Assembly: GCA_963622445.1 (NCBI GenBank)
Contig: CAVFHY010000002.1
Coordinates: forward strand, 1 to 58,926
DNA: 58,926 nucleotides
From: Bacteroidaceae bacterium
GTDB lineage: Bacteria > Bacteroidota > Bacteroidia > Bacteroidales > Paludibacteraceae
Direction: 5' to 3'
Under the pieces are notes generated by a model, which saw only the letters and a list, made by a program, of their open reading frames with translations, searched no databases and was not told where the DNA came from. Position numbers and translations under genes: made by a program. Shown here in pieces: positions 8,313 to 32,364 of the stretch; position 1 is the stretch's first letter, and every line of letters starts with the position of its first letter.

Positions 8313-8379
8313 TGCGCTGATAGGTAACTTCGTGTGCGAAGAATATATACATTGTACACGGAGATACTTGTGTACGGAT

Positions 8380-11220
8380 ATGAAAGGAAAACGGCTGATA
8401 ATCATTTCGGGACTGCTAGTGGCTTGGGGGCTGACAGCAGAAGGTGCGTATAATGATAGCGGGTATCGAGCGGAATGGGTGCCGGTAACAGAAAACTATA
8501 CGCCAGACGACTACAAAGCCGGGACCCAAAACTGGAACATCCTACAACATCCCAACGGGTGGATATACGCCGCCAACAACTATGGGGTGCTCGAGTATGA
8601 CGGCGCACGCTGGCATCTCTACGGCATCGGGAACTCAACCGTGGTGCGCGCCCTTGCGACCGATACCGAAGGGCATGTCTACGCCGGCGGAACAGATGAG
8701 TTCGGGTATTTCACGCCCAATACATTCGGCGGGTTGGACTATCACACGCTGACCGAACAGATACCCGAACGATACAAGCAGTTTGGCGAAGTATGGCGTA
8801 TATTCCCCTCCGAACAATGCCTCTATGTACAGACAAGAAACTATATCTTTCTGCTCTACCAAGGCGGACACACGGAGGTAATTGACCCAGGAGATGTGAT
8901 ACGGACTGCCTTGCTTGCGAACGGGGAATTCTATGTTGCTACTGCGCACAATGTATTCATTCTCAGCGCAAACCGGCTGCATGCGCTGCGGGGGACAGAG
9001 GCTATTCAAGGGGCTGTGGTCTGCGCCCTACTGCCCTACGGCGACCAGATACTCATCGCTACAGACTTCAAAGGACTATACACCTACGACGGAGAAACAC
9101 TGAAGCGACTGCCGACCGAGGCGGACCGCTTCATCACCAACAACCAACTCTACGCTGTAGCACTGAATAAGTACCACATTGCCCTCGGCACTGTGCGTAA
9201 CGGGCTGGTACTAACGGACTTGGATGGACGAAACTGCGTCTATCTAAACCGCGACAACGGACTACAGAACAACACGATACTGAGCCTGCTCTTCGACCGG
9301 CAAAACGACCTATGGATCGGATTAGACAAAGGTATCGACTGCATACGACTGATGTCTCCTGTGCGTGTACTGAACAATATACGAGACGATTACGGTTCCG
9401 GGTATGCGGCGATCGAATACCAAGGGAGCCTGCTACTCGGCACGAACCAAGGAGTATATCGCATAGAGGGAAACACACCAAAGTTGATAGAGAACTCATT
9501 GGGGCAAGTATGGAACATCAAAGAGACAGACGGGCGATTGGTCTGCTGCCACAACCGAGGGTTGTTTGAGATAACCGGCAACCGTCTAACGCCTATCGAG
9601 GAGGGAGATGGCGTATGGAATGTGCGCCCGTACGCCCGCAGCCGCTACGCCATTGCGGGGACTTACACGGGCTTCTCCCTGCTGCAACGGAACGGGGAGC
9701 GCTGGAGCATCGCACACCTAAACGGATTCAACGAGACGGCTCTCTACTACCAAACGGACTATCAAGGAAATATATGGGTACTCTCGTCGCAGGGCGTCGA
9801 ACGGCTACGGGTGGATATAGACAAACGGCAGGTACAGCGTGAGGTGGTGATAGCCTGCCCCTCGGCACAACAACACTATTCGCTTGCATGCGTGGGCAAC
9901 GAGGTGATTGTATCCTCAGCCATGTATCTCGGGCGAGTGGACACAACAGGAGCACTGTGTGAATGTACGCCCGAAGAGGTGGGTGTGCCTGCTATCGGAC
10001 GATATTTACAGATAAAACAAGACGAGGCGCATAACCTATGGTTCATCACAGACGACAAACTCTTCATTCGCCCGTGGAATACAGCGGAAGGAAAGTATGA
10101 GGCAGCACAAGAGCGTATGGAATACGGTGCGTTCATGATAGGCGGCTTTAGCAATATCCATTTCACCCACAGCGGACAGGCTATCGTAGGCGGCATAAGC
10201 GGTTTTCGGCAGATAGAGTCTGTACAGACCCCTCCGCACGAATGTCCGCAGGCAGACCTCTACATACGCAGTATACGCAGCCTCAGCCCCAACGAAAAGG
10301 AACTCTACGGAGAATCATACGCCGAGCGGCAACAGCGCATCGACCTGCCAACGGGTGTCTATTCGCTACACATAGAATACAGCGGGAATACCGAGAGCGG
10401 CAGCCATACCCGCTATGCTACTCGTCTGCGCCCTTCAGAGAAAGAGTTCTCGCCCGCCACAGCCGCCACGGAACGCGACCTGACAGCCCTCGCACCAGGG
10501 AACTACACACTGGACATCCGTATGTTCACTCCGACAGGAACGACAGAAAGGAGCATCGCAATAACCATTGCACGCCCGTGGTACAAGAGCGGATGGATGA
10601 TCGTACTCTATGTCGTAGCGGGTATCGTATGCGGATTAGGTATAACATGGTGGGTACGACGAGAGATACGACGCAACAAAGAGCGTATCGAAGCAGAGAA
10701 AAACGAACAACTTCGGGCGCAAGAGATGCAGATACTGCAATTAGAGAACGACAAAGCACAGTTTGACCTGCGCCAAAAGAGCCAAGAACTGAGCCATATC
10801 ATTCTCTCGGAGAATACCCGCAAAGAACTGACCGAGTCGATACAACGGGAACTGAGACGCACCATAGACTGCCTAAACCAAGGCGAAGAAGCCGATGCGA
10901 AAGTGCGACTGCAAAACCTGCTGCAACGACTGGCAACCAACACCGACGGAACAGTGGACTGGAGCCGGTTCGAAGACAACTTCGACATCGTAAATGACCA
11001 ATTCATCCGACGACTGACCGCCAAGTATCCATGGCTCAACAAACAAGAGAAGCGTCTCTGTGTCTATATCAAAATGGGTCTGCAGACCAAAGAGATTGCG
11101 CCACTGCTGAATATATCGCCGCGAGGCGTGGAGATGATGCGGTATCGGTTGCGGCAGAAAATGGGGCTCGATACACAACGGAACCTGAAAATGTACTTCA
11201 ACAATGAAGAATTGTCTTAG
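8380..11220 (+). CDS. Transmembrane one-component regulator: periplasmic beta-propeller (Reg_prop) repeats + Y_Y_Y domain, one TM helix, coiled coil, C-terminal LuxR/GerE HTH
   Basis: Signal-like MKGKRLIIISGLLVAWGLTAEG. The ORF track starts 16 codons earlier at 8332. Propeller-type repeats (NWNILQHPNGWIYAANNYGVLEYDG...). Y_Y_Y-type region (YSLHIEYSGNTES...YATRLRPSEKEFSP...GNYTLDIRMF). TM helix WMIVLYVVAGIVCGLGITWWV. LuxR HTH LNKQEKRLCVYIKMGLQTKEIAPLLNISPRGVEMMRYRLRQKMGL. I saw no HisKA, HATPase or REC motifs. Confidence 0.85.
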   Translation: MKGKRLIIISGLLVAWGLTAEGAYNDSGYRAEWVPVTENYTPDDYKAGTQNWNILQHPNGWIYAANNYGVLEYDGARWHLYGIGNSTVVRALATDTEGHVYAGGTDEFGYFTPNTFGGLDYHTLTEQIPERYKQFGEVWRIFPSEQCLYVQTRNYIFLLYQGGHTEVIDPGDVIRTALLANGEFYVATAHNVFILSANRLHALRGTEAIQGAVVCALLPYGDQILIATDFKGLYTYDGETLKRLPTEADRFITNNQLYAVALNKYHIALGTVRNGLVLTDLDGRNCVYLNRDNGLQNNTILSLLFDRQNDLWIGLDKGIDCIRLMSPVRVLNNIRDDYGSGYAAIEYQGSLLLGTNQGVYRIEGNTPKLIENSLGQVWNIKETDGRLVCCHNRGLFEITGNRLTPIEEGDGVWNVRPYARSRYAIAGTYTGFSLLQRNGERWSIAHLNGFNETALYYQTDYQGNIWVLSSQGVERLRVDIDKRQVQREVVIACPSAQQHYSLACVGNEVIVSSAMYLGRVDTTGALCECTPEEVGVPAIGRYLQIKQDEAHNLWFITDDKLFIRPWNTAEGKYEAAQERMEYGAFMIGGFSNIHFTHSGQAIVGGISGFRQIESVQTPPHECPQADLYIRSIRSLSPNEKELYGESYAERQQRIDLPTGVYSLHIEYSGNTESGSHTRYATRLRPSEKEFSPATAATERDLTALAPGNYTLDIRMFTPTGTTERSIAITIARPWYKSGWMIVLYVVAGIVCGLGITWWVRREIRRNKERIEAEKNEQLRAQEMQILQLENDKAQFDLRQKSQELSHIILSENTRKELTESIQRELRRTIDCLNQGEEADAKVRLQNLLQRLATNTDGTVDWSRFEDNFDIVNDQFIRRLTAKYPWLNKQEKRLCVYIKMGLQTKEIAPLLNISPRGVEMMRYRLRQKMGLDTQRNLKMYFNNEELS

Positions 11221-11321: not shown

Positions 11322-12440
11322 TTATTGCTGGCGGGTGCCGATAGCGTTGTAGCGGGTGCCGTCCCTGGTGATGACAAGTTGCCCATTCTCGATAGTCTTC
11401 TTTACGCGGGAAGTAGAGACGGTTGCATCTATGATGCCGGAAGTACCTTGCTTGTAGAAATACACATTGTCGATATAGCAAGTCGCCGGCATCGCAGCCC
11501 ATTTCAGTTGGTATATACCGGCTGCGTTAATCCCTGCAAAGTCGGTCGCAAGGTCTATATCCAATGCATTCCAACCTGCTACAAGGGTATAGGTATGCAG
11601 CGCCTCTTTGCCCCAAATCGGTGTAAACTGAATCGTCCCTGCCTCAGCCACATAGACATCCATATGCAGCATCGGATAGTCAGATAGTGCCGCAATAGCC
11701 TGATTGCTATTCAGTTCCCAGCCCATATAGTTGCCCGTTGTGCAGTAGTACGCCTTGTCGTCATCCGCAAGGTTCACTTCTTGAATAGCGGTCGTCTGCC
11801 CCCAACTGCCAATAGCCATCACCGTACCGGCCGTATAAGCGTCCGAGTAAATGGAGAATACATCGGCAGCAGCGTATATCGGAGCGGTTGCAGGAGCCGG
11901 GTGCGTCACGGGATCCGGCGTTACGGCGTCGCCCACCTCCTTGATAGAGATGTTCGAAATCGTGATTTGCGTACCGGCAGCCGCATAGCCAAAGTCAAAC
12001 ACAAGAATCTTGTTATTGTCTTTCACGCCATTGCCTTGTTCAGAGATAAAGGTATAATCTGTGTTTGCAGGCAACTTAATCGTCTGATTGGCAAATACCA
12101 CCTCTGCATTATCATCCATCTTGAGCGTAACACCGCCCAACTCTTTGTTCGAGTGGAACTTCACCGACACGATGTATGCCTTCGTCTCGTCGAATGCTAC
12201 ATTGTGGTTCAGTTTTACCTGTCCTTGCCACTGAGCCGACAGGCCATTTTTGATATCCACCGAGAGGATTCCAGTCGTGGCATCGTAGGTGACGGTGCTG
12301 GTCTTGTCTTCTGTCCAATTGGGTGCAATGTAGGTATAGTTTATTGACGCCTGTGAGGGGTCAAACAGTTCCGTTCCATCAGCCCAAGCCGCTGCCGCCA
12401 TACAGAACAGAGCAGCCACAAAAGTAAAAACTTTTTTCAT
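11322..12440 (-). CDS. Secreted non-catalytic protein: CBM-like beta-sandwich + 'VYFYK' module + T9SS C-terminal sorting domain
   Basis: Signal peptide MKKVFTFVAALFCMAAAAWA. C-terminal KKTIENGQLVITRDGTRYNAIG (T9SS type-A CTD style). The C-terminal ~185 aa are paralogous to the C-terminus of the 1034-aa neighbour. Confidence 0.8.
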   Translation of the reverse strand: MKKVFTFVAALFCMAAAAWADGTELFDPSQASINYTYIAPNWTEDKTSTVTYDATTGILSVDIKNGLSAQWQGQVKLNHNVAFDETKAYIVSVKFHSNKELGGVTLKMDDNAEVVFANQTIKLPANTDYTFISEQGNGVKDNNKILVFDFGYAAAGTQITISNISIKEVGDAVTPDPVTHPAPATAPIYAAADVFSIYSDAYTAGTVMAIGSWGQTTAIQEVNLADDDKAYYCTTGNYMGWELNSNQAIAALSDYPMLHMDVYVAEAGTIQFTPIWGKEALHTYTLVAGWNALDIDLATDFAGINAAGIYQLKWAAMPATCYIDNVYFYKQGTSGIIDATVSTSRVKKTIENGQLVITRDGTRYNAIGTRQQ

Positions 12441-12512
12441 GATCGTTTTGTGTTAGTTCGTGTGTTGTATTATTGTCATTTTATGTATTCTTCGGTGCAT
12501 GAATCAAAGACA

Positions 12513-12548
12513 CTACCTCACAGTTCTCTCTCGAGAACTGCAAGGTAG
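12513..12548 (-). terminator. Imperfect 16-bp hairpin between the 1034-aa and 372-aa genes
   Basis: CTACCTCACAGTTCTC..GAGAACTGCAAGGTAG, with 2 mismatches in the stem. Confidence 0.4.
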
Positions 12549-12563
12549 TATTGTCCTATATCA

Positions 12564-15500
12564 TTACTCAATCACTTGCCCCATAGCATTGTAGCGGATG
12601 CCGTCACGAGTGATGACAAGTTGGCCATTCTCTATGGTCTTCTTTGCGGGAGAAGTAGAGGAAGTAGCGTCTATCATTGTAGTTTTGTCTTGCTTGTAGA
12701 AATAGACATTGTCGATGAAGCAAGTAGCCGGCATAGCAGCCCATTTGAGTTGGAAGATAGTTGCCAAGTCTATTGCTGCGAAGTCCGACTTAAGGTCGAT
12801 ATTGAACACATTCCAACCGGCGGCAAGGGTATAGGTCTTAACTGCCTCACCACCTGTCCAAATCGGCGTGAACTGAATCGAGCTTGCCTCCTCTACATAG
12901 ATGTCTATATGGCAGTACGGGTAGTCGGTTACATCAACGGTTGCACCCAATTCCCAGCCGAGATAGTTGCACTTGGTATAGAACAGAGCCTTGTCGTCCG
13001 TAGCCAATGTAACCTCGGTTTCAGCGGTCGTTTGGCCCCAACTCCCCATGGTGCGTGCAACAACCGGTGTGTAGGCATCGGAATAGATTGCCTTTACATC
13101 ATCCGCCGTGACAGTAGGTGCTACAGCCGCTGTTGGGAGTGCCTTGGTCGTGAACGACAGCGTTTCTACATTGGCAGCCGCATTGCCTGCCTCATCGACG
13201 GCTTTCACAGTAAGTGCATAGTCCGTATCTGCTTCAAGACCCGAAACGGTGAAAGTAACAGCCGTGGCAGAAGCAGCGTTTTGTGTGGCTATCTGCAATT
13301 CGCCGTTGAGGACTTGGAATATAACTGCACCCGAGTTGTCGGTAGCCTTCGCCGTGATGTCCACCGATACATAAGAAGGCGTTGCCGATACTGTGAAGTC
13401 GGTCGGTGCCTCTGTGTCCACATCGGGCGCTTGGGTGGTATAGAAATAGATATTATTGAGCCAGAAGGTCTTGTTCGAAGCGTTGTCTATCTTGAGTTGG
13501 AAGACATTGGTCCAGTCGGTAACACCGGCAAACTCGGTAAGAGGAATATCAAAACTGTTCCATTGTTCGCCAACGACAGACTTGGTAACACCGACTTCTG
13601 TACCACCGTGAATCGGAACGAAGCGCAAGGTCATATCCTCTTCGCACCATACATCAACATGGAGAGCCTCCATAGAAGCGCAGTTGAGTGCAAAATCAAT
13701 CAAACCGAAATAGCCAGATGCAATGGTGGTAAACTTCTTGCCGTAGGTATCTTGGGTATAGGCAGTGCCGCTTCCCCAGTCACCAAAGTTGCAGTCTGCC
13801 GAATAGGTAGCCGAATAGATGGCTTTCACTTGGTCTGCCGGGTAGGTGGGAACGGCAGGAAGAGCCTCCGGTGCGGTCTTGTGTGCAGGGGTGGTAACCT
13901 CCACATTCTTGGAGTTGTCCGATTCGTTGCCTACGAGGTCGAATGCCGTAATGGTGAAATTGTATGTGGTAGATGGCGTTAGATCCGTAACGGTAATGTT
14001 GCCATCCTTAGCGGTGCATTTGGCGTCAATGCTATTCGTAGCGTCCACTACATGATAGGAAGCCACGCCTACATTGTCGGTAGCCGAAACAGCGATAACG
14101 GCTGTGTTGTAGGTATTGGAAACCAAAGCGGCCGATACCATAACCGGCTTCTCCTCATCAGCCGGCGCAGTGGTCGGTGTACCAAAGACTTTCATCTCGA
14201 ATATCTTCATACCATACTGGGTGGCTGCCTTGGTGCTGTAGAAGCGTACATAGCGTACTACCGAAGCATTCTTAAGGTTGTCACCGTATATCAAGTCGGT
14301 ACGCCCGTCAATACCGGCAACACCCACATAGTTGTAGGCTTCATTCCACGTGGCGTTATCCACCGAGCAGTCGATATGGTACTCCTGCGAACAAGCCCCC
14401 TCGAAGAGAATCGAGATAAAGTTAAGGCTGTAGTAGTCGCCCAAATCGAGCGTGAACCACGAATCGTAGGTACGCGAGGTCTCATCAGCGGCTGTGCTAC
14501 CCGTAGCAGAACCTTGCCATACACTACCTTCATTGCCATCAACGGCATAGAAAGCATCCGTACCACCTGTACCCATATCGGATTGTGCAATCACCTTGTT
14601 GTCGGTGGAGATATTGGTACTGAGGGCTACATTGGTACCCTCGTAACAGAAGAGGCTGACAGGGTCGCTGCTGACGCTGCCCGAGATAGCCGTAATGGTA
14701 ACAGCCCCTAACTTGGCAGCCGTGAAGACACCGTCTGCAACCGTACCTGCGTCTGCGGGCGACACCGTATAGGTAATCTCCGCCTCCATGGTTTCGCCAT
14801 CTTGGTCTTTGGCCGTAGCGGTAAGCGCCACCGTCTCACCGACCTTAACGATGTCGGCTGCCGACTTGAGCGTGATAGTGGTCAGCGTCTGCTCCTTTTT
14901 CTCGAAAGCACGCAACTCCCAGAAAGAGTAGCCATAGCCCGTCGCACGCTCGATGCCATAGAAACGCACATACTTGGCATTCTGCTCGCCAACCGAAAGA
15001 GTCTGCAAATAGGGGAAGCCCGATAGGGTTTGGTCGGTAACGGCACTGATAGCGGTCCAGGTCGTGCCATCGTTGCTGACCTCGAGGCGGAAACTCTTGG
15101 CATACGCGTTCTCCCAAAGGATTTGCACCGTATTGAATTGGCTCTGCTCTGCCATCTCGCACATCCACCATTGGTCATCCGTATGGTCGGACTCCCAGCG
15201 AGTACCCTCGTTGCCGTCATTACCGTTGGAAGCCGTACCCGAGGAGGCAGTAGCCGTCTCGTTGAGCACTACATTGTCCTTTTGGGCGGCAGCACCATCG
15301 GCATAGTAGACATGGAAGACAACGGTGCCCTGCGCATGCACGACCGTCACCTCGGTCTCTTGTGCCGTAAAGGCAGAGAGGTGCAAAATAATACCTGCAC
15401 CCTGAATATCACTCGACACCGAACAGGAAGAAATACCCGAAGGGAAAGTCATGTAGATACCCGCCTCCGAAGCAAAACCGGGTTTTTGGATATTCACAAC

Positions 15501-15668
15501 GCTAAGACCGTCAACGGTCTCTACCTTGTACTTGTTGGAGTAAGCACCTCCGCCGACACCATCGCCAACGAAGACATACTGCGACCAATCAACGGCTGCA
15601 AAAGCCGTTACTGTTGCACATAGACACATAAGCGCTATGGCAAATAATCGAAAAGATACCTTTTTCAT
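12564..15668 (-). CDS. Large secreted multi-module protein: 2x F5/8 type C (discoidin/CBM32-like), Big_2, 2x FN3-like, 2x 'VYFYK' modules, T9SS CTD; no catalytic domain recognised
   Basis: Signal peptide MKKVSFRLFAIALMCLCATVTAFA. Discoidin-type NGNDGNEGTRWESDH..QWWMCEM...FRLEVSNDGTTW and AVDGNEGSVWQG...YHIDCSVDNATW. Big_2-type ITLKSAADIVKVGETVALTATAKDQDGE. FN3-like PVMVSAALVSNTYNTAVIAVSATDNVGV.. and TDFTVSATPSYVSVDITAKATDN... C-terminal KKTIENGQLVITRDGIRYNAMG. Confidence 0.85.
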   Translation of the reverse strand: MKKVSFRLFAIALMCLCATVTAFAAVDWSQYVFVGDGVGGGAYSNKYKVETVDGLSVVNIQKPGFASEAGIYMTFPSGISSCSVSSDIQGAGIILHLSAFTAQETEVTVVHAQGTVVFHVYYADGAAAQKDNVVLNETATASSGTASNGNDGNEGTRWESDHTDDQWWMCEMAEQSQFNTVQILWENAYAKSFRLEVSNDGTTWTAISAVTDQTLSGFPYLQTLSVGEQNAKYVRFYGIERATGYGYSFWELRAFEKKEQTLTTITLKSAADIVKVGETVALTATAKDQDGETMEAEITYTVSPADAGTVADGVFTAAKLGAVTITAISGSVSSDPVSLFCYEGTNVALSTNISTDNKVIAQSDMGTGGTDAFYAVDGNEGSVWQGSATGSTAADETSRTYDSWFTLDLGDYYSLNFISILFEGACSQEYHIDCSVDNATWNEAYNYVGVAGIDGRTDLIYGDNLKNASVVRYVRFYSTKAATQYGMKIFEMKVFGTPTTAPADEEKPVMVSAALVSNTYNTAVIAVSATDNVGVASYHVVDATNSIDAKCTAKDGNITVTDLTPSTTYNFTITAFDLVGNESDNSKNVEVTTPAHKTAPEALPAVPTYPADQVKAIYSATYSADCNFGDWGSGTAYTQDTYGKKFTTIASGYFGLIDFALNCASMEALHVDVWCEEDMTLRFVPIHGGTEVGVTKSVVGEQWNSFDIPLTEFAGVTDWTNVFQLKIDNASNKTFWLNNIYFYTTQAPDVDTEAPTDFTVSATPSYVSVDITAKATDNSGAVIFQVLNGELQIATQNAASATAVTFTVSGLEADTDYALTVKAVDEAGNAAANVETLSFTTKALPTAAVAPTVTADDVKAIYSDAYTPVVARTMGSWGQTTAETEVTLATDDKALFYTKCNYLGWELGATVDVTDYPYCHIDIYVEEASSIQFTPIWTGGEAVKTYTLAAGWNVFNIDLKSDFAAIDLATIFQLKWAAMPATCFIDNVYFYKQDKTTMIDATSSTSPAKKTIENGQLVITRDGIRYNAMGQVIE

Positions 15669-15769
15669 GGTTGAAATTGAATTAGTTAGTTATTATGTTA
15701 TGTTGTTTGCTTGAATGATGCGTTTGTATTGCTATGGAGTGTTTGGCACACGACAGCAAACACACCGGC

Positions 15770-16897
15770 TTACTCTACGACGGTACCTAAAGCGTTGTAG
15801 TAGATGCCATTGTGGAGGATAAGGAGTTCGCCGTTGCGAATTACCTTTTGGGCGTGACGGGCCAAGGTCTCGACTGCCTCAATGGCTGTGGAAGAATCCT
15901 GACACAACTGCGAAGCCGTTACTTCAAAAGGATTGGTAACCCACTGACCATCGCCCAATGCCGGCGTATGCCAGAAGACATTGCAAGTAAAGTCCAAACC
16001 GGCGAGTTCGTCGAAAACCAACTCGGTGGTAACGACCGTACCTGCATTCTTGGTTCCGACCTCTTTTGCTACACCGTTAATCTCTACATGATACCAGTCG
16101 ATAACCGTTTCGCTGTTGGTCAGCACCTTGACGCCAATGGAAGTATCACTCTTCTTGGTGATAGTCAGCAGGATACGACCTGCTGGGTCGCCAAAGTCGG
16201 CATTACCGAGATGCCCCGTGGGGAAATCGCAATAGGTAAGGCTCGATGTGGTGAAAGACACCTCCTTGTAGTTCTCGGAGAGCAAACCCGTGGTTTTCAG
16301 GGCATAGATTTGGAGCGTATAAGCCGTGCCGCTCGCAAGCCCCGTTACAGTAATCTGTCCGTCTGCGGGAACGAAAGAGCCGAGTTTGGTCTCACCGCTC
16401 TGCACCTGATAGAGCGCAATACTGTCCGCCGGGGTTGCCGAGACGGCTATGACTGCGCTGTTGTGGGTGGCACTGACGAAAGTGGCACTCTCCATGACAG
16501 GCGCCTTGGTGTCCTGCTCGCCATCGCCGCAAGTACTCCACTCGATGTCGCTCAGCGTACCGAAATTGACCTCACCCGGCATCAAGACATAGAGCGGGGT
16601 GTAGAAAACGGGGTCGGATTCTGCGGCTATGGAGCAGACCAGTTTGGTGGGGGTGTTGGTCGTAATCGTGGTACGGATATCCACCGCCCCCGGGTTGAAG
16701 AAAGTACCACCAAAGCCTGCCAAATTTTCGCCCTCGACAGTCAGGCGATAGTTGCCCAGCGAGAGTTTCTCGCACGAAAGATAAATCGTGTTCGTCCCTT
16801 GAGTCAGTTCTTCGTGGCAGTACACCTTGGCAAAGCCACACTCTGCGCCGAACAACGCGGCGGAAAGCAGAAGAAATGAAAGTAGATTTCTTTTCAT
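15770..16897 (-). CDS. Secreted protein with a central FN3-like domain and T9SS CTD (function unknown)
   Basis: Signal peptide MKRNLLSFLLLSAALFGAEC. FN3-like KAPVMESATFVSATHNSAVIAVSAT... shares AVIAVSAT with the 1034-aa protein. C-terminal QKVIRNGELLILHNGIYYNALG. Confidence 0.8.
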   Translation of the reverse strand: MKRNLLSFLLLSAALFGAECGFAKVYCHEELTQGTNTIYLSCEKLSLGNYRLTVEGENLAGFGGTFFNPGAVDIRTTITTNTPTKLVCSIAAESDPVFYTPLYVLMPGEVNFGTLSDIEWSTCGDGEQDTKAPVMESATFVSATHNSAVIAVSATPADSIALYQVQSGETKLGSFVPADGQITVTGLASGTAYTLQIYALKTTGLLSENYKEVSFTTSSLTYCDFPTGHLGNADFGDPAGRILLTITKKSDTSIGVKVLTNSETVIDWYHVEINGVAKEVGTKNAGTVVTTELVFDELAGLDFTCNVFWHTPALGDGQWVTNPFEVTASQLCQDSSTAIEAVETLARHAQKVIRNGELLILHNGIYYNALGTVVE

Positions 16898-17032: not shown

Positions 17033-19333
17033 TTATTGCAATCGGAAACGAGCGGGAGTCCCTTCGGCACTGCTTCGGGAAATCCATACTTGGAAATCGC
17101 CCGGCTCGGCAGAACGGACATAGCGACCGTCCGCACCCAAAGTAACGCCATCCGCCAAATGCCAGTAAGCCAGGTCGTCCTCCGAGAGCGTGAACTGCAC
17201 CGTGCGGCTCTCACCTGCCGGAATCGATACCCGCTCGAAACCTTTCAACTCACGGATGGGGCGGGTGAGGCTGCCCACAAGGTCGCGAATATAGAGTTGC
17301 GGAACAGCAACGGCTTCCCTATTGCCCGTATTGGTGATGGTACACGAAGCGGTAAGGGTGGCATTTCTGCCCATAGCAAGCAGCGTATCGGACAGCGTAA
17401 CGGGGCTATAGTCGAAAGTGGTATAGGTAAGCCCATAGCCGAAGGGGAAGAGAGGCTTATCTCCATACTCGAGCCAATAACTGGACTCGCCCAACGAGAA
17501 CTGCGGCGCACCCACGGGAATCTGGTCTATCAAGACGGGATGGTCGGTGGGGCGACCCGTGTTCTTCTTGTTATAGTACATCGGTATTTGCCCCTCTGCC
17601 TGCGGGAAAGTCATCGGCAAACGCCCCGACGGAGCGACTACGCCTGTGAGCAGGTTCGCCAACGCCGGACCTTGCATGGTGCCACCGTGGAATGCATACA
17701 ACACGGCATCGACTATGTCAATATCCGCACCTATACAGAGCGGACGACCCGCCATAACAGTCAGCACCACCGGCTTGCCCGTGGCCTTGAGCGCACGCAA
17801 CTGAGCCGACTGGTCGCCCGGCAAATCGAGATGCGCACGGCAGCGTGCTTCGCCCGAAAGAATACTCTCCTCGCCACCAAAATAGAGAACTACATCGGCT
17901 TGACGGGCTTTGGCAACCAATTGATTGATATTGTCCAGGCTAACCTCGCGCGACCAATGCTTGCCCTCCTGCTCAATGAGGCGTATCTTGCCCTCACGAG
18001 CCAACTGACGGAACGCCATAAGCGGGGTAACGGTCATGGAATCGACCTTGTCGAAGCACCATGTACCGTTCTGGTCGTGCTGGGAATTGCAGAGAGGACC
18101 GCAGACAAGAACAGTGAGGCGTTGCGTATTGAGAGTGGAGAGCGGGAGTATGCCGTTGTTCTTGAGCAGAACGGCTGACTCCTCGGCGGCACGCTGTGCG
18201 GCTGCCAATGCCTCCGTCGTAAAGTACTGCGTGGAATCGAGCGTACAATACGGATTCTCAAACAGCCCCAAGCGGAACTTCAGACGCAAAATATCCCGCA
18301 CACAAGCGTCCAACTGCTTTTCGCTGACCTTGCCGCTCTCGACGAGTTCTTTGAGGTACCACGGATAGCCATGCCCCTCCATATCCATCTCCATCTGTGC
18401 ATTGACGCTCAACACCGTCGCCTCACGCAAGTCGGCACAGTTGCCGTGCGCAATCATATTCGCCGAGGATGCCCAATCGGACACAAGCATACCCGTATAT
18501 CCCCACTCGCCTCGCAAGATGTCTACATTGAGGTGACGGTTTGCCGAAGCAGGCACACCATTGAGGTCGTTGAACGAACACATGATAGTCGCTGAACCCG
18601 CATCAACAGCCGCCTTGAAGGGCGGAAGGTAGGTCTCACGGAGTTGCACCTCTGGAATCCAAGTAGTGTTGTAGTCACGCCCACCCTCGGAAACGGCATA
18701 GCCTGCAAAATGCTTGACACAAGCCGCCATATCGATAGTACCCTGACCCGTTGCAGGGTGGTAGTCGGCACCCTGATAGCCACGCACACAGGCTGCGCCC
18801 ATGACAGAGGTAAGGTAGGTATCCTCTCCATAGCCCTCGGCAATGCGCCCCCAACGAGGATCACGCGCTACATCGACCATAGGGGAGAATGTCCAACGCA
18901 GCCCCGCATGGACAGCCTCGTTGGCCGTAAGGCGGGCCGCCTGCTCAACCAAAGCGGGATCGAAAGTAGCCGCCTGACCGAGCGGAATAGGATAGATAGT
19001 ATGGTAGCCATGGATGATATCACGACCGAAAATCATCGGGATACCCAGGCGAGTTTCCTCAACGGCAATGCGCTGGTAGTAGTTCGCCTCCTCACCCACG
19101 CTGTTGAGCATAGAACCTGCCCCCGCACGCACCTGGTTGGCAAGGTCGTCGGAATACCAACCGCCACAGACCTGCGTCATCTGGCCGATTTTCTCCTCGA
19201 GGGTCATCTCAGACAAAAGGCGGTCGATTTGCTGCTCAGTGGGGTCTTTCTTCTGGCAAGAAGCCAGGACAAGGCACAATGCACACAGAATGTACAACGA
19301 GAGGCTGCAAAATGTACGGGAGTGAGTTTTCAT
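17033..19333 (-). CDS. GH3 beta-glucosidase (BglX-like), lipoprotein/periplasmic
   Basis: MTLEEKIGQMTQ, GIPMIFGRDIIHG, KHFAGY, GMLVSDWAS (GH3 nucleophile Asp context). Signal ...LCLVLASC. Confidence 0.9.
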   Translation of the reverse strand: MKTHSRTFCSLSLYILCALCLVLASCQKKDPTEQQIDRLLSEMTLEEKIGQMTQVCGGWYSDDLANQVRAGAGSMLNSVGEEANYYQRIAVEETRLGIPMIFGRDIIHGYHTIYPIPLGQAATFDPALVEQAARLTANEAVHAGLRWTFSPMVDVARDPRWGRIAEGYGEDTYLTSVMGAACVRGYQGADYHPATGQGTIDMAACVKHFAGYAVSEGGRDYNTTWIPEVQLRETYLPPFKAAVDAGSATIMCSFNDLNGVPASANRHLNVDILRGEWGYTGMLVSDWASSANMIAHGNCADLREATVLSVNAQMEMDMEGHGYPWYLKELVESGKVSEKQLDACVRDILRLKFRLGLFENPYCTLDSTQYFTTEALAAAQRAAEESAVLLKNNGILPLSTLNTQRLTVLVCGPLCNSQHDQNGTWCFDKVDSMTVTPLMAFRQLAREGKIRLIEQEGKHWSREVSLDNINQLVAKARQADVVLYFGGEESILSGEARCRAHLDLPGDQSAQLRALKATGKPVVLTVMAGRPLCIGADIDIVDAVLYAFHGGTMQGPALANLLTGVVAPSGRLPMTFPQAEGQIPMYYNKKNTGRPTDHPVLIDQIPVGAPQFSLGESSYWLEYGDKPLFPFGYGLTYTTFDYSPVTLSDTLLAMGRNATLTASCTITNTGNREAVAVPQLYIRDLVGSLTRPIRELKGFERVSIPAGESRTVQFTLSEDDLAYWHLADGVTLGADGRYVRSAEPGDFQVWISRSSAEGTPARFRLQ

Positions 19334-19337
19334 GAGA

Positions 19338-22300
19338 TTACAATTTGATGGTTACGATGACTTGTTTGACTTGACCGTCACGGGCGAAGATATGGTGCGA
19401 GGTCGAGGCATCTATGGTGTTAGCGAACGAAAGGGTCTTGCCGTCGGCAAATTCGACCGCGATACTCGGCTCGCTGCCCAAACGATAGGTGAACGGGGTT
19501 TGGCAATAGGTGAAAGACAGGGTATCTTCGTGGAACATATCGGCACCAAGCATAATAGGCTCGATACGAATGGCACCATCTGCCACACGCACGCCCAACT
19601 CGAAGAAGCGGGAAAGAATGTCTTCCTTGACTTGCCCCGTCATGCCCGGCTGCTGAACGCCTCCACAAACATACCCGTTGGCCTCTGTCGGCTCGTACAA
19701 CCAAGGCGTGTGGGAATAGGCATCGAAGGGGAAAGAGCCGTACTCGGCAGGGGTCTTATGCGCACCAATACCCTCACGGACAGCCGCATAGTGGGCTTTC
19801 AGGCGAGCAAGGACTGCCTCATCGGCATGAGCGTCTATCGCCTGCTCGATGGTTTCGCCCACTGCTACCAGCAACTTGCTGACCATGTGCCAATAGATAG
19901 AGCCAAGCCCCTCGTACTTGTAGAACGAACCGGAACGACCCGTGAAAGCATGGTGGTGGAACATCTGCTCATAGACGGCAAGCAGTTCTTTGCGCTCGGC
20001 GGTGGTGATGTCCGCATGACTATCCAAGGCACGGGACAGGAAATCGGCATTGTTGAACGACGCACAGAAATGCACCCCACCCTCGCAGTCCTGCACCAGG
20101 ATGTCGGTTGCCTGCTCGCTCAACAGACGCTCAACGACAGGCAACGACAAGGCCTCAGCAGGCAAGTTGTTTCGGTCGAGGAAAGAGGGGCGGCGGCGGT
20201 TGGGATAGAGCATATAACTGCGCTGGTCTTCGCGATAGAGAGCCGAACAGCGCATAGCATCGAGCAAGTCGGCGGCTTCGGCGGGCGCAAGCGCACCAGA
20301 AGACAAGATAGCCACTTGCCCCTCGAGCATCTCGTAGAGGTGCTCAACGCTCAGCGTCCCCTCGCCAAAGGAGATGAGGTTGTAGGCGTGGTACAAGCCG
20401 TCTGCACGCTTATTGACCGCAATGGAGGCGTCGATATAGGTCTGCACCTTGTTCAGGAATTGGAGAAGAAGATCAGTCGATAATTCTACCTTCTCACCGG
20501 AATGGCCGGCATAGACAGCCCGGCGATAGGTCTCACCTGCACGACCGACCGTGTCGATGAAGGTGCGGCGGGTTTCGTCGGTGAACGAAAGCGACCGGCC
20601 GGCACACTCGGCATCGTGGGCTGCAAAAGCACTAGATATATCACGCAGGAAGACAACGACCTCCCGGGAAAGCGCATAGGACGAATCCACACCCTCGTAC
20701 AAACGAGTCAGGAACTGCACGAAACGACGCATATAGCAGAGCGTGACCATAGACGCACCATAGCCAACGAGGGCATTGTTGGCGTCGTTCCACTCGGGGC
20801 GAAGGGTATTCATCCAAATACCTGCCTCGGGGATGAAGTTGCTCAACTTGGTGAGCAAAGTGATGAGTACTTTCTCCGTGAAGGTAACGAGCAGGGGTTG
20901 GTCGCCTGCCATAACGAGGCGTGCATCCTGCCCGTAGGTGGGCAACAGGGAGAAGATATGCTTATGGAGATCGTCAACGAAACAGATAGAATCCTTGGGA
21001 TTGGCAACTATCTCGGAGTAGGTTCGGAAATGGTACGGGACATTGGCAAAAGCGAACTCCCTATCGCCCAATATGGCACGCAATGCAGCGGGGTTGTGCT
21101 TGTAACTCAACTCCAACAGACGACAGAGATAGATAATCTGGTGGTCGCCCCAATAGCCGATATTCGACCACGGGTTTTCCGGCTCGATAACCTCCCAATC
21201 GATGCCCTCGGAGGTAACCTTATAGGGATTGTAGCCGTCCGCTGTAGTGGCATTGAGGAACTTGGCAATAATGCCGTTGGTATAGTCAGGGTACGAAAGT
21301 GAAAGCGCCTCCCAGTTCTGGAAAATATCACGCCAGTTGCCCTGATAGGAAATGAGGCGACGGCCATCCTTGTCGTTGACACGAATGTCGAACAAGTTCC
21401 ACGGACGGCTCGGGTCGCCATGGCGACGAGAGAATGTAATGGGCAGGTACTCCATGAAAAGACGGTGCAACTGGTGGTCTTGCAGATCCATGATACGCTC
21501 CTCGAGGCGGCTATAAGATATAGTCTCAGGCAGCGAGGATAGGAAACCACGGTACTGCTCGGCAAGCGCCTTGTTGAATACCTCGACATGGTAAGCAAAA
21601 GCAGGGCCGTTGATTTGATAGTTATCACAATAGAAACCGCCACGCATGGTATTGAACAGCGTGTTGGCGAAATGGCGAGCATCGTCCCACTCATCCGCCG
21701 TATGCTGTACCCCGTCGTTCTGCGCCACGATAGAGCGGAGCGTGTCGGTGGCAGTACGGATGGCTGCCTCGACCTCGCTGATGGCATTCGGCTCACCAAG
21801 GAAATGCAAGCTGCGGCGCACATCGGCAGCATCCTGCATGACATCGCAGACAAAATACCACTGCTCGCTCGCGTACGGGGCGAGAGAGAGGGAAGTATGG
21901 GCGAAGATAGCACCACGCATACCCTTCGACTCCGGCTCGGCAAGGACTGCTTCGCCACGACGGAAGGCATCCAACTGCACAGATGAAGTCAGATAATCGG
22001 CCTCCGATAGACCGAGCGTATAGACACTATTGCAGCGCAAAGACTCACTCGGCTCGGCTCGATCGACCAAGATGGCCTCCATACGGAACAAAACCATGGG
22101 TTGGTTCGGGACTTGTTCGGTCTTTTTGTAGGCATCGACCAAAGTGGAGAACACATTTTGGGTCTTCTGCTCCACGCCCGAAGGCATAACATTCTGCAAA
22201 CCATCCAACAATTCGACGGAGATAGCACAATCCGTGTCGTTGAACAAGCGAGCACAGCGCACCCAACCGAAGCGGTCAGCTGCTGCCCACTCGTAAGCGA

Positions 22301-22730
22301 AGGTAAGCCCAAGGTCGAGATTCTGCTCCATAAAGAGCAGTTTGTTGCCCGTGACCGACTTGGCAATGCTGCGGCGGACACGGTAGATACCGTTCAGGCG
22401 GTCGGAGAAAGGCTCCCAGAGGACTCCCTCCTGCCCAGATGTAGGCGTATCGGAGGATACGGGCAGTACTCTTAGGATAGTCTTGGCACCGGTATGCTCA
22501 TAGTTCTCGGTGATTTTGTCGTCGGTATAGTACGGGAACAGCACCTGCTCGGGGTTGCGGCGGCCACAGGTAAGCCCGCCCGTGGAGGAGATATACATCC
22601 ACAGATCGGTATCGCTGGCAAGGCTGATAAAGAACGGATGCAGTTCATCGTAATTCTCTATCTGATAATACTTCTCACCGTTGAGGGTCAAGTACTTACC
22701 CGTTACTTGCTTTTTTTCTATTGTATTCAT
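19338..22730 (-). CDS. Large cytoplasmic glycoside phosphorylase candidate (GH94-clan; best fit GH149/GH161-type beta-1,3-glucan phosphorylase)
   Basis: 1130 aa with no signal peptide. RPEWNDANNALVG resembles the catalytic DWND motif region of GH94-type phosphorylases. The size (~128 kDa) matches GH149 proteins. It sits between a sugar symporter and GH3 inside a beta-1,3-glucanase locus. The family call is an inference, not a search result. Confidence 0.55.
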   Translation of the reverse strand: MNTIEKKQVTGKYLTLNGEKYYQIENYDELHPFFISLASDTDLWMYISSTGGLTCGRRNPEQVLFPYYTDDKITENYEHTGAKTILRVLPVSSDTPTSGQEGVLWEPFSDRLNGIYRVRRSIAKSVTGNKLLFMEQNLDLGLTFAYEWAAADRFGWVRCARLFNDTDCAISVELLDGLQNVMPSGVEQKTQNVFSTLVDAYKKTEQVPNQPMVLFRMEAILVDRAEPSESLRCNSVYTLGLSEADYLTSSVQLDAFRRGEAVLAEPESKGMRGAIFAHTSLSLAPYASEQWYFVCDVMQDAADVRRSLHFLGEPNAISEVEAAIRTATDTLRSIVAQNDGVQHTADEWDDARHFANTLFNTMRGGFYCDNYQINGPAFAYHVEVFNKALAEQYRGFLSSLPETISYSRLEERIMDLQDHQLHRLFMEYLPITFSRRHGDPSRPWNLFDIRVNDKDGRRLISYQGNWRDIFQNWEALSLSYPDYTNGIIAKFLNATTADGYNPYKVTSEGIDWEVIEPENPWSNIGYWGDHQIIYLCRLLELSYKHNPAALRAILGDREFAFANVPYHFRTYSEIVANPKDSICFVDDLHKHIFSLLPTYGQDARLVMAGDQPLLVTFTEKVLITLLTKLSNFIPEAGIWMNTLRPEWNDANNALVGYGASMVTLCYMRRFVQFLTRLYEGVDSSYALSREVVVFLRDISSAFAAHDAECAGRSLSFTDETRRTFIDTVGRAGETYRRAVYAGHSGEKVELSTDLLLQFLNKVQTYIDASIAVNKRADGLYHAYNLISFGEGTLSVEHLYEMLEGQVAILSSGALAPAEAADLLDAMRCSALYREDQRSYMLYPNRRRPSFLDRNNLPAEALSLPVVERLLSEQATDILVQDCEGGVHFCASFNNADFLSRALDSHADITTAERKELLAVYEQMFHHHAFTGRSGSFYKYEGLGSIYWHMVSKLLVAVGETIEQAIDAHADEAVLARLKAHYAAVREGIGAHKTPAEYGSFPFDAYSHTPWLYEPTEANGYVCGGVQQPGMTGQVKEDILSRFFELGVRVADGAIRIEPIMLGADMFHEDTLSFTYCQTPFTYRLGSEPSIAVEFADGKTLSFANTIDASTSHHIFARDGQVKQVIVTIKL

Positions 22731-22765: not shown

Positions 22766-24223
22766 TTACTCGGCGGCACGGCGTTCTTCCAACTCCTTCT
22801 TCATAAGCGCAAGCGTCGGCTTGTCGATATTATAGAAAGCCAAAAGAATGGCGCACGATGCATAGAGAACGCCCGGGACAATGCCAAACAGGACACGGAT
22901 ACAAGACATGATTTCCGGCACGGATTGGATCTCGGAAGTGGTCATAGTGGCCGGATCGAATCCGACATGGCTCATGATAGCCCCAAGAATGGCCGCACCA
23001 ATAGACCAACCTATCTTCTGCGCAAAGACGGCAGCCGAGAGGCAAAGACCCGTCGTGCGACGGTTGAATTTCCAATCGCCATAGTCTGCCGCATCGGCAA
23101 GCATTGTCCAAAGCAGCGAGATAGCCGGCGCATAGGAGATTTTTGCCAAACAGTTGAACACATTAATCAGCACAAAATTAGTACCAGCAAAGAACAACAT
23201 ACAAAAGAAGAAACCCGACAAAAGCGAGCAGACGATATACAGATTGCGGCCACCATAGCGTGCGACAAGAGGCTTGGTGAACGGGATGGCAATGATAAGC
23301 GCAATCGTGCCCAAGAGATTGAACATCTGGCTCTTGGACTCAGCATCGCAAAAGTACTTGAAATAGTAGGTGGCAGAGATGTTTTGGATGGCAAACATGA
23401 TAAACGACACGATACCTACCAGCGTCAGCACTACCCACGGACGGTTTTGGAAAAGCGAGCCGAAATCACGGAACAAGTTGGTGTCCTGCTTGGCTGCCGG
23501 GGCAACACGCTCACGCGTGGAAAAGAATGTAATGAACAGCAGCACGACACTAATCGCACCGAAAATGGCCACGAGATAGCGGAAACCATACTGATATGCC
23601 GTACTGACCAAAGCAGCATTGTCGGCAGAAGACTCGGCAAAGAGTTTGCGAGCCTCGTCGTTTGCCATGGTGGCATAATCAAGACCCGACACACACAGCG
23701 TGCCGAGATAGTACACGCCATAGAGTGCCAAACCGGAAACGATAAGTTGACCGATATTGGCTGCCACAAAACGATAGGAATTGAGCCCGGCACGCTCGAT
23801 AGAATCATTGGTCATCACCGCACCCAAAGAGGAATAGGGGATATTGACAATGGCATAGATGATACGCAACAGGATAAAGGTAATCAACACATACGCCACC
23901 TGCGCATTGCCCGCGAGCGAAGGCCCCCAAAAAGCAAGAAGGGCACAGAGCGCAAAGGGAACGGCTCCGAAAAGGATAAATGGACGGAACTTGCCCCAAC
24001 GAGTATTGGTACGGTCTGCCCAGATACCCACTATCGGATCCATGACGGCGTCCATAATGGTGCCCAGAATAGCAATCGTGGTTGCCCACGCGATGCTGAT
24101 ACCCGCCACATCGGTGTAGTAGAAAATCAGCCAAAAATTGACCATATCCCACACGAAATGGGAGGCAGTGTCGCCAAGGCTGTATCCTAATTTTTCTTTA
24201 ACGCTCAGTTTCATAACATTCAA
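22766..24223 (-). CDS. GPH-family (MelB-like) MFS glycoside:cation symporter
   Basis: KEKLGYSLGDTASHFVWDMVNFWLIFYYTDVAGI plus about 12 hydrophobic helices. Confidence 0.85.
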   Translation of the reverse strand: MNVMKLSVKEKLGYSLGDTASHFVWDMVNFWLIFYYTDVAGISIAWATTIAILGTIMDAVMDPIVGIWADRTNTRWGKFRPFILFGAVPFALCALLAFWGPSLAGNAQVAYVLITFILLRIIYAIVNIPYSSLGAVMTNDSIERAGLNSYRFVAANIGQLIVSGLALYGVYYLGTLCVSGLDYATMANDEARKLFAESSADNAALVSTAYQYGFRYLVAIFGAISVVLLFITFFSTRERVAPAAKQDTNLFRDFGSLFQNRPWVVLTLVGIVSFIMFAIQNISATYYFKYFCDAESKSQMFNLLGTIALIIAIPFTKPLVARYGGRNLYIVCSLLSGFFFCMLFFAGTNFVLINVFNCLAKISYAPAISLLWTMLADAADYGDWKFNRRTTGLCLSAAVFAQKIGWSIGAAILGAIMSHVGFDPATMTTSEIQSVPEIMSCIRVLFGIVPGVLYASCAILLAFYNIDKPTLALMKKELEERRAAE

Positions 24224-25250: not shown

Positions 25251-25290
25251 AGTTTGTGCTATTATTTGGGTATGCTTTGTTAGGATTGTA

Positions 25291-32313: not shown

Positions 32314-32364
32314 AATAGAATCTCCCATAGTATTAATTCATCATTCGTAATTCTTCATTCATAA

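Follow-up and report, generated by a model that had tools for sequence, protein, structure and literature searches.

Surface glycan-binding proteins (SGBPs) encoded in polysaccharide utilization loci (PULs), PUL enzymes exported through a type IX secretion system (T9SS) as well as T9SS cargo rich in carbohydrate-binding modules (CBMs) are already known. BtSGBP-B, the SGBP of the beta-1,3-glucan locus of Bacteroides thetaiotaomicron, carries CBM-like (CBML) domains that each bind laminari-oligosaccharides, with a dissociation constant in the 1e-5 M range, via three aromatic residues (PMC7974029). The subject here is a group of three consecutive minus-strand open reading frames (ORFs), located at 15770-16897 (375 amino acids, aa), 12564-15668 (1034 aa) and 11322-12440 (372 aa) of a Bacteroidaceae bacterium contig (CAVFHY010000002.1, assembly GCA_963622445.1), whose positions 1 to 58,926 were analysed as one stretch, called the window below. 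Two features of this group are new, an uncatalogued short tail in the place of the T9SS C-terminal domain (CTD) and an unclassified module, here the VYFYK module, that is tied to beta-glucan PULs. As judged from domain homology and comparison of loci, the three proteins are probably beta-glucan binders, displayed on the surface or released by a T9SS-type route through a lineage-specific mini-signal.

Among the described systems, BtSGBP-B and BuSGBP-B (7KWB; Tamura et al. 2021, PMC7974029) are likewise non-catalytic, multi-modular and PUL-encoded, and their CBML domains are homologous to residues 32-171 of the 372-aa protein. However, these Bacteroides proteins are lipoproteins in which an Ig spacer at the N-terminus is combined with one domain present twice, whereas the 372-aa protein has a type-I signal peptide, contains that domain once, joined to a CBM11-like module, and ends in a tail of the sorting type. 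Structurally, the VYFYK module is best matched by the CBM11 of Clostridium thermocellum Lic26A-Cel5E (1V0A, 6R3M), which binds beta-1,3-1,4- and beta-1,4-glucan and whose matched structure contains bound mixed-linkage glucan. This CBM11, however, comes from a cellulosome context instead of a Bacteroidota PUL, and the module is only 13% identical to it and has no Pfam match. The laminarin-binding CBMxx X584 (8QX6) of a Christiangramia forsetii SGBP (Zuhlke et al., bioRxiv 10.1101/2023.09.07.556657), a tandem beta-sandwich CBM from a laminarin-PUL protein, is comparable in that marine VYFYK copies are found in lipoproteins of similar architecture and in that both resemble an accessory module of a glycoside hydrolase (GH) family GH50 agarase; it differs in giving no sequence match to the VYFYK module and a Foldseek TM score of 0.48 at 17% identity.

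With regard to export, the T9SS type A CTD is a seven-strand Ig fold of ~70-100 aa with motifs A-E and C-terminal lysines that are essential for secretion (PMC10202324). The short tail shares with type A CTDs (TIGR04183/PF18962) its position at the extreme C-terminus of Sec-exported non-lipoproteins, the many unrelated passengers, the same junction in orthologues and a weak 'YNxxGxxV' resemblance to a mid-CTD stretch, whereas the ~75-aa length, the seven-strand Ig fold, motif A (YPNP) and the motif D/E-type ending of these CTDs are all absent from it. Polysaccharide degradation by means of C-terminally tagged secreted proteins is also exemplified by Flavobacterium johnsoniae ChiA and by the cellulases of 'Ca. 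Paraporphyromonas polyenzymogenes' (PMC5831590); these, in contrast to the mostly non-catalytic cargo and uncatalogued tag found here, are enzymes with catalogued CTDs.

The three proteins and a GH16 enzyme share a short C-terminal tail

The N-termini of all three proteins are hydrophobic, with Ala-X-Ala-type cleavage sites and no lipobox, and no catalytic family was detected in the 375-, 1034- and 372-aa proteins by Pfam and NCBIfam scans. A first-pass annotation of the same DNA, made from the sequence alone, had assigned a signal peptide to each of the three and had recognized no catalytic motif in any, in agreement with these results. It had also described their C-termini as T9SS-type. A tail common to all three is indeed present, and its pattern, K-x-I-x-N-G-(Q/E)-L-x-I-x-x-x-G-x-x-Y-N-A-x-G, leaves 4 further residues up to the stop, but the models of type A, B and C CTDs (TIGR04183, PF18962, TIGR04131/PF13585 and NF033708) matched neither the proteins, nor the isolated tails, nor the tailed GH16 described next, at E<=10. 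The same models work on controls, and NF033708 registers on a Flavobacterium control.

The tail spans residues 347-375 of the 375-aa protein (15773-15859, minus strand; tail profile E 7e-14), residues 1006-1034 of the 1034-aa protein (12567-12653, minus; E 3e-17) and residues 344-372 of the 372-aa protein (11325-11411, minus; E 7e-15). The tail profile also identified it at residues 480-507 of a 508-aa GH16 (25291-26817, minus; PF00722), an enzyme with a type-I signal peptide and an N-terminal CBM-like region whose tail had been missed in the first reading. With this enzyme included, the pattern becomes K-x-(I/L)-x-(N/D)-G-(Q/E)-(L/I)-x-I-x-x-x-G-x-x-Y-(N/T)-x-x-G followed by four residues, and the tails of the window end in ...GTRQQ, ...GQVIE, ...GTVVE and ...GTPLH. 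Because the GH16 bears the same tail, the tailed set is not purely the trio of non-catalytic cargo proteins that had been proposed: the three proteins are without a catalytic family, but the tailed group also includes an enzyme.

The tail is ~29 aa long (~40 with a conserved linker), and only 41 residues follow the VYFYK module of the 372-aa protein. In the full-length AlphaFold2 model of this protein (pLDDT 86.8), which consists of two beta-sandwiches and a 3-strand tail, the linker at residues 333-344 is disordered and residues 346-364 form three short strands in a beta-meander, with block-mean pLDDT values of ~74-83.

When a 43-column profile of the tail was searched against 1.84 billion proteins, 11,210 representative proteins were matched at E<=1e-3 and 1,043 at E<=1e-10. 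In all of the best 150 of the 11,210, whose lengths range from 45 to 1349 aa, the match ended 0-3 residues from the C-terminus. The passengers of 90 tail-bearing proteins that were scanned are very diverse (Big_2, CHB_HEX_C_1, Flg_new_2, CBM26, CBM77, discoidin and beta-helix domains), being mostly CBMs and Ig-like repeats with a few enzymes, and PF18962 was found in 0/90. Sec-type N-termini were present in 81/89 tail-bearing proteins, and a lipobox-like motif in at most 5. Given its extreme C-terminal position, its unrelated passengers and the Sec-type N-termini, the short tail behaves, at the level of sequence, as a sorting signal.

A second conserved element, T-x-(I/V)-(D/E)-N, was observed in the linker ~12-16 residues upstream of the tail, as in the 372-aa protein, whose linker lies at 11412-11447 (minus strand; from the alignment of tail-bearing proteins). 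Its T and N are >90% conserved in the 90 otherwise unrelated proteins, and it could serve for processing or attachment. Written out together with its linker, the tail reads T-x-I-(D/E)-N, 6-8 residues, K-x-I-E-N-G-Q-L-x-I-I-R-x-G-x-x-Y-N-x-x-G-x-x-V.

No relevant description of a short T9SS tail, whether for Paludibacteraceae, RF16 or Prevotella, was found in the accessible literature. It is a tentative but plausible proposal that the tail represents an undescribed class of sorting signal of uncultured gut and rumen Bacteroidales, which would have displaced the type A CTD on whole PUL cargo sets and would end >11,000 clusters. Such a class could possibly be either a T9SS signal reduced to a miniature that has no need of motifs D/E or a tag for export or anchoring by a separate route.

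Other C-terminal endings were noticed in homologous proteins. The module proteins L066:5604-10856, L037:1614-3632, L055:5709-8639 and L073:6915-10286, from contigs labelled Prevotella, Muribaculaceae and 'Bacteroides sp.', carry at the same position another short tail, ...Y-(D/N)-L-x-G-R-R-V...K-G-x-Y-I-x-x-G-R-K-x-x-x-K, which was matched neither by TIGR04183 nor by Pfam and may be another under-annotated CTD variant. The homologues P0380, P0381, P0388, P0402 and L031:7146-8663 end in DUF6383 (PF19910), which looks like a diverged T9SS CTD because the DUF6383 of P0380 overlaps a sub-threshold Por_Secre_tail match.

Orthologues carry canonical CTDs at the same junction

The distribution of both kinds of C-terminus was compared in 77 fetched loci (~16 kb each, ~1.1 Mb) plus the window. 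A total of 139 short-tailed ORFs was detected in 53 of the fetched loci and the window, and canonical CTDs were confined to the other loci, so that a short tail and a canonical CTD were never seen in one locus.

Homologues of the 375-aa protein at ~36-46% identity carry PF18962. In a BLASTP alignment with one of them, P0375, identity was 43% over residues 1-340 of the 375-aa protein, after which a 35-aa tail faces a 77-aa CTD. The same exchange was found in a syntenic PUL (locus L076), which encodes SusC, SusD, a Big_2 protein, GH16, GH128, a GH16 with PF18962, GH3 and an orthologue of the 375-aa protein with PF18962. The PF18962-bearing GH16 of this locus is 52% identical to the tailed GH16 of the window over residues 13-456, up to the tail junction. 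A canonical CTD therefore stands at the same junction as the short tail in orthologues of the 375-aa protein as well as of the GH16.

When the tail was aligned with canonical CTDs by hhalign, a 12-column 'YNxxGxxV' stretch located mid-CTD was obtained with a score of 16.6, compared to 8.2 +/- 2.1 (maximum 12.9) for 60 column shuffles. A circular permutation of the CTD motifs was also considered for the tail and was not compelling, as the permuted alignment scored 20.2 versus 16.6 and did not reach motifs D/E. No T9SS genes were found within the 59-kb window in Pfam and NCBIfam scans. It is on comparative grounds, namely the same-junction CTD orthologues and the mutual exclusivity of both signals, that the tail would be linked to T9SS, and the replacement at the same junction in a syntenic PUL makes a lineage-specific shortened signal for the same machinery the most economical reading.

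CBM-like and spacer domains of the 372- and 1034-aa proteins

According to its ORF and the AlphaFold2 model, the 372-aa protein (11322-12440, minus strand) consists of a signal peptide, a CBM-like domain of the BtSGBP-B type, a VYFYK module and the tail. Its residues 32-171 (11928-12347, minus) match both CBML domains of 7KWB (phmmer against PDB, E 4e-16), and 7KWB was the top Foldseek match of the whole model (E 1e-14). The residues of BtSGBP-B aligned with Y37, W41 and W70 are W/W/W in its middle domain and Y/W/W in its distal domain, and the three would be the counterpart of its mutated aromatic triad. The first-pass annotation had missed this homology. When the modules were checked by profile and structure, as it had proposed, no family match was obtained for the VYFYK module, whereas residues 32-171 of the 372-aa protein did match BtSGBP-B.

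The 1034-aa protein (12564-15668, minus strand; ORF and domain profiles) is built of more units, all encoded on the same strand. An N-domain at residues 25-128 (15285-15596), without a Pfam match at E<=1 and without an assigned family, is followed by a first discoidin/CBM32-like domain at residues 131-254 (14907-15278; PF00754 at 141-250), whose closest PDB entries, 4zy9/2rv9 (E 2e-18), are discoidin domains of the CBM32 type from a Paenibacillus glucanase/chitosanase. Then come a Big_2 domain at residues 261-332 (14673-14888; PF02368, E 2e-6, 28.1 bits versus a cut-off of 22.8) and a second discoidin domain at residues 362-486 (14211-14585; PF00754, E 7e-13). The first FN3 unit, at residues ~505-593 (13890-14156), contains the motif AVIAVSAT and scored slightly under the Pfam cut-off (fn3, E 4e-5, 24.2 bits versus 25); a second lies at residues 754-830 (13179-13409; fn3, E 2e-5), in between two copies of the VYFYK module, copy A at residues 600-745 (13434-13871) and copy B at residues 845-993 (12690-13136). 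The presence of two discoidin (F5/8 type C) domains and one Big_2 domain had been predicted by eye and was confirmed by the PF00754 matches and by a PF02368 score over the Pfam cut-off. The prediction of FN3-like units sharing AVIAVSAT was also correct, since the first FN3 unit of this protein and the FN3 of the 375-aa protein are 44% identical over 90 aa. Copy A is ~34% identical to the module of the 372-aa protein, and copy B plus the tail is 64% identical to the C-terminal half of that protein.

The VYFYK module and its distribution

A profile of the VYFYK module, built from homologues of the 372-aa protein, detected exactly three copies in the window, copy A (E 1e-19) and copy B (E 9e-69) of the 1034-aa protein and residues 181-331 (11448-11900, minus strand; E 1e-80) of the 372-aa protein. 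Of the four copies that had been proposed, the two in the 1034-aa protein and the one in the 372-aa protein were thus recovered by the profile, but the one in the SGBP-like lipoprotein at 29601-30530 was not. This lipoprotein gave no match to the module profile (hmmsearch --max, E<=10), hhalign aligned only the last 44 columns with a probability of 12%, and its 'IYSD' lies ~8 residues before 'WQEFDIP', whereas the spacing in true modules is ~90 residues. Therefore, a fourth copy of the module is not supported, and its presence in the SGBP lipoprotein was rejected on the profile and hhalign evidence.

No Pfam family, CBM_11 included, matched the module at E<=1. With a 14-sequence profile no sequence relatives were detected in PDB; a 40-sequence profile from many taxa gave a marginal match to CBM11 (1V0A/2LRO, E 0.1), in an alignment that includes W..I.IP and DN motifs, and otherwise nothing meaningful. 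A marine protein with three modules had no match in PDB either. Modelled alone with AlphaFold2, the module is a beta-sandwich (pLDDT 96), for which the best Foldseek match was CBM11 (6r3m/1v0a; E 3e-6, TM score 0.60, root-mean-square deviation 5.4 A, 13% identity). CBM30, CBM8, CBM29 and CBM6 score similarly, and the X-domain of ExoP and a GH50 accessory module were also among the Foldseek matches. The predicted fold of the module is CBM11-like, with no demonstrable family membership by Pfam or PDB profiles, which agrees with the earlier view that the module could not be assigned by eye to a named CBM family.

Two other origins of the module were tried. A diverged copy of the BtSGBP-B-like domain of the 372-aa protein was rejected at the sequence level (hhalign probability 0.15%), and the laminarin CBM X584 (8QX6) was rejected as well, as there was no sequence link to it with single sequences or profiles and it occupied rank 15 in Foldseek.

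A genome scan for the module returned 71 loci. In the fetched loci that reach the adjacent genes, the neighbours of module proteins are usually SusC/D, GH16, GH128, GH149 or GH3, and the association of the module with such PULs spans gut Bacteroidales, Paludibacter, Flavobacteriia and Cyclobacteriaceae. The marine copies of the module (Flavobacteriia and Cyclobacteriaceae) lie in lipoproteins with acidic motifs after the Cys, several of them encoded directly after SusD, the usual position of an SGBP. In Flavobacterium, Carboxylicivirga, Paludibacter, Cloacimonadales and a Bacteroidia metagenome-assembled genome (MAG), the module is found in Sec-type proteins that end in TIGR04183, and in gut Bacteroidales related to the window, in Sec-type proteins that end in the short tail. 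The association of the module with beta-1,3-glucan PULs across Bacteroidota constitutes the main argument, an indirect one, that its ligand would be a beta-1,3-glucan.

The 375-aa protein

The 375-aa protein (15770-16897, minus strand) comprises a signal peptide, an N-domain (residues 24-125), an FN3 (129-217; Pfam), a C-domain (218-332), a linker and the short tail. The FN3 is the sole domain identified in it: the N- and C-domains gave no Pfam or PDB sequence match, and a family profile searched against PDB finds only the FN3. In the family of this protein, Cys, Trp, Asp and Glu positions are invariant and a His is nearly so. A relationship between its domains and the N-domain of the 1034-aa protein was rejected (hhalign probability 1%).

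Gene content of the locus and its relatives

The 375-, 1034- and 372-aa genes are the last of a one-directional cluster and follow a GH3 gene; the intervals measure 135 nt between the GH3 and 375-aa genes, 101 nt between the 375- and 1034-aa genes and 123 nt between the 1034- and 372-aa genes. In the direction of the minus strand, and as identified by Pfam unless stated, the cluster encodes SusC (32365-35553), SusD (30667-32328), the Big_2 lipoprotein and SGBP candidate mentioned above (29601-30530; Big_2 plus a ~200-aa domain, with the lipobox LNAC followed by KDKND), a GH16 with two Big_2 domains (28240-29508), a Glyco_hydro_cc protein of the GH128 type with a CBM35-like domain (26880-28142), the short-tailed GH16, another GH16 (24273-25394, a 373-aa mechanical ORF), an MFS_2 transporter of the MFS type (22766-24223), a 1130-aa GH149 beta-1,3-glucan phosphorylase (19338-22730; NF058639, 1422 bits versus a cut-off of 1150) and the GH3 (17033-19333). 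As SusC/D, several GH16s, a GH128-type Glyco_hydro_cc, GH3, MFS and GH149 are all present, the locus is, by gene content, a beta-1,3-glucan PUL, and the earlier assumption of such a PUL was borne out by this content and by the GH149 match.

Two details of these genes were observed. The GH149 has no signal peptide, and is thus expected to be cytoplasmic, and it adjoins the MFS_2 transporter, which implies import of laminari-oligosaccharides followed by energy-saving phosphorolysis. The GH16 ORF at 24273-25394 overlaps the upstream GH16 by 104 nt, and its true start is likely the internal MMKHTT..., which would give a lipoprotein signal (LLSSC) and a product of ~325 aa.

A convergent gene on the plus strand (8332-11220) encodes a 962-aa regulator with Reg_prop repeats, one transmembrane segment and a GerE helix-turn-helix (Pfam), in which no phosphorelay domains were matched by Pfam. 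This arrangement is that of BguR, a laminarin regulator of marine Bacteroidota (bioRxiv 10.64898/2026.01.10.698779), so that the BguR-type architecture of a membrane-spanning one-component beta-glucan regulator is found here in a PUL of gut Bacteroidales. The regulator gene is adjacent in relatives too.

A near-identical copy of the locus (99% identical protein) is present in GCA_963603315.1, and the named relatives, MAGs of human (Hadza among them) and ruminant gut origin, are labelled 'Paludibacteraceae bacterium' or 'uncultured Bacteroidales'. Among them, the constant member downstream of GH3 is the orthologue of the 372-aa protein; the larger proteins of the relatives range from ~450 to 1860 aa, and some loci have extra tailed proteins beyond that orthologue. 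In ruminant-gut relatives (L013-L022, L032-L033) the cluster after GH3 grows to 4-5 short-tailed proteins of up to ~1860 aa, and the number of modules differs among them. This variable size and number of tailed proteins suggests a rapid module shuffling of the cargo set. Contigs with this Bacteroidales PUL titled 'Dialister sp. CAG:486', 'Azospirillum sp. CAG:239' and 'Mycobacteriaceae bacterium' (L012, L026, L027) are probably mislabelled or mis-binned MAGs.

Elsewhere in the window, a GH13 alpha-amylase-family protein (46197-48065, plus strand) and a 1512-aa TamB/AsmA-like protein (48143-52681, plus) are encoded downstream of housekeeping genes (ffh, prfA, pepT), with no obvious link to the PUL.

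Discussion

The ORFs, the domain homologies, the PUL content, a tail that is both non-canonical and widespread, and the presence of a CTD in place of the tail in orthologues are direct observations. For T9SS dependence, surface anchoring and the actual ligand, which we infer, the following model is proposed. The three proteins, which are non-catalytic and in two cases composed of CBM-like modules, would be exported by Sec via their type-I signal peptides, and the compact C-terminal signal (the T-x-I-(D/E)-N linker plus ~29 residues), standing in for the canonical ~75-aa type A CTD in this lineage, would direct the crossing of the outer membrane by a type IX-type route, after which the proteins would be attached to the surface or released. 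Outside the cell, the BtSGBP-B-type CBM-like domain, the two CBM32-like discoidins and the three VYFYK modules, set on FN3 and Big_2 spacers, would allow a multivalent capture of beta-1,3-glucan (or mixed-linkage glucan) beside the GH16 endoglucanase that carries the same tail. The captured glucan would feed the SusC/D importer, with GH3, the MFS transporter and the cytoplasmic GH149 phosphorylase acting downstream, and the tailed set would work in parallel to a lipoprotein set made of SusD, the Big_2 lipoprotein, GH16 and GH128.

A glycan-capture role alongside the lipoprotein SGBP is a reasonable proposal, because the three proteins are non-catalytic by every profile and the 372- and 1034-aa proteins contain CBM-like modules. 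The T9SS-anchored glycan-capture layer put forward in the first-pass annotation is thus upheld in part: the CBM-like modules of these two proteins and the PUL context agree with it, but the sharing of a module with the SGBP (by profile) and the catalogued T9SS tail had to be dropped.

The use of a T9SS-type route has to be weighed against the idea that the tail belongs, as tag or anchor, to some other, undescribed pathway for outer-membrane export or attachment, one that replaced T9SS display in this lineage, in which case the three proteins would still be glucan binders. Several results speak for such a pathway and against a T9SS signal: the tail fails every T9SS CTD model, it is too short and is predicted by AlphaFold2 to form a mini-domain of three strands rather than a seven-strand Ig fold, the tails of the window lack a motif D/E-like G-x-Y...K-x-x-K ending, and the likeness to CTDs found by hhalign is limited to 12 columns with a probability of 13%. 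The lack of co-occurrence with canonical CTDs in ~1.1 Mb of related loci is likewise what would be expected if one system had displaced the other. However, the simplest explanation for a replacement at exactly the same junction, as seen in the orthologues from the syntenic PUL, is a variant signal that addresses one and the same machine. A short signal is also compatible with T9SS, given that secretion can be achieved with no more than the last 22 residues of a type A CTD (PMC10202324). The weak resemblance of the 'YNxxGxxV' stretch to the middle of the CTD also favours a T9SS signal, and no candidate for an alternative machinery was seen in the window. A separate pathway is therefore considered unlikely.

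As for the function of the proteins, the fact that the relation of the VYFYK module to CBM11 is at the fold level only (13% identity, TM 0.6) counts against glucan binding, and the three could instead be secreted or displayed adhesins or surface-layer components that bind particles, mucus or cells, their adjacency to the PUL reflecting co-regulation only. FN3, Big_2 and discoidin domains are frequent in adhesins, no CBM can be recognised in the 375-aa protein, and the tail is found elsewhere mostly on Ig-like and repeat domains. Nevertheless, we regard such a role as quite unlikely, given that the 372-aa protein clearly contains a homologue of a domain whose binding of beta-1,3-glucan was validated by experiment, that the VYFYK module tracks beta-1,3-glucan PULs in distant taxa, including the SGBP position after SusD, and that the gene set is kept downstream of GH3 and GH149 in relatives. 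A hidden activity could also reside in the regions to which no fold or function can be assigned, namely the two domains that flank the FN3 of the 375-aa protein and the N-domain of the 1034-aa protein, and one or more of the three would then be enzymes with an unrecognised catalytic domain. These regions of ~100-115 residues are without Pfam or PDB match, and the invariant Cys, Trp, Asp and Glu and the near-invariant His of the 375-aa family would fit an enzyme, but with ~100 aa the domains are small, profiles of hydrolases, lyases or esterases do not come close to them, and the remainder of each protein consists of binding or spacer modules only, which makes an enzymatic function very unlikely.

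T9SS cargo is currently counted by models of the TIGR04183/PF18962 type. If a tail of 30 residues does the job of the CTD, thousands of secreted or surface proteins of the abundant but uncultured Bacteroidales of gut and rumen would be invisible to annotation, and profile-based censuses of T9SS cargo may undercount in gut Bacteroidales. A mini T9SS signal that works without motifs D/E would, if true, change the view of recognition by the translocon and PorV, and the minimal requirements of T9SS recognition, or another route, would become testable with a very small tag. The presentation of one CBM11-like module in three ways, in marine lipoproteins, in T9SS-CTD cargo of Flavobacterium and Paludibacter and in short-tailed cargo of gut Bacteroidales, would amount to a natural experiment on the display of glycan-capture modules, and the VYFYK module is nominated for biochemistry as an unclassified candidate family of beta-glucan CBMs.

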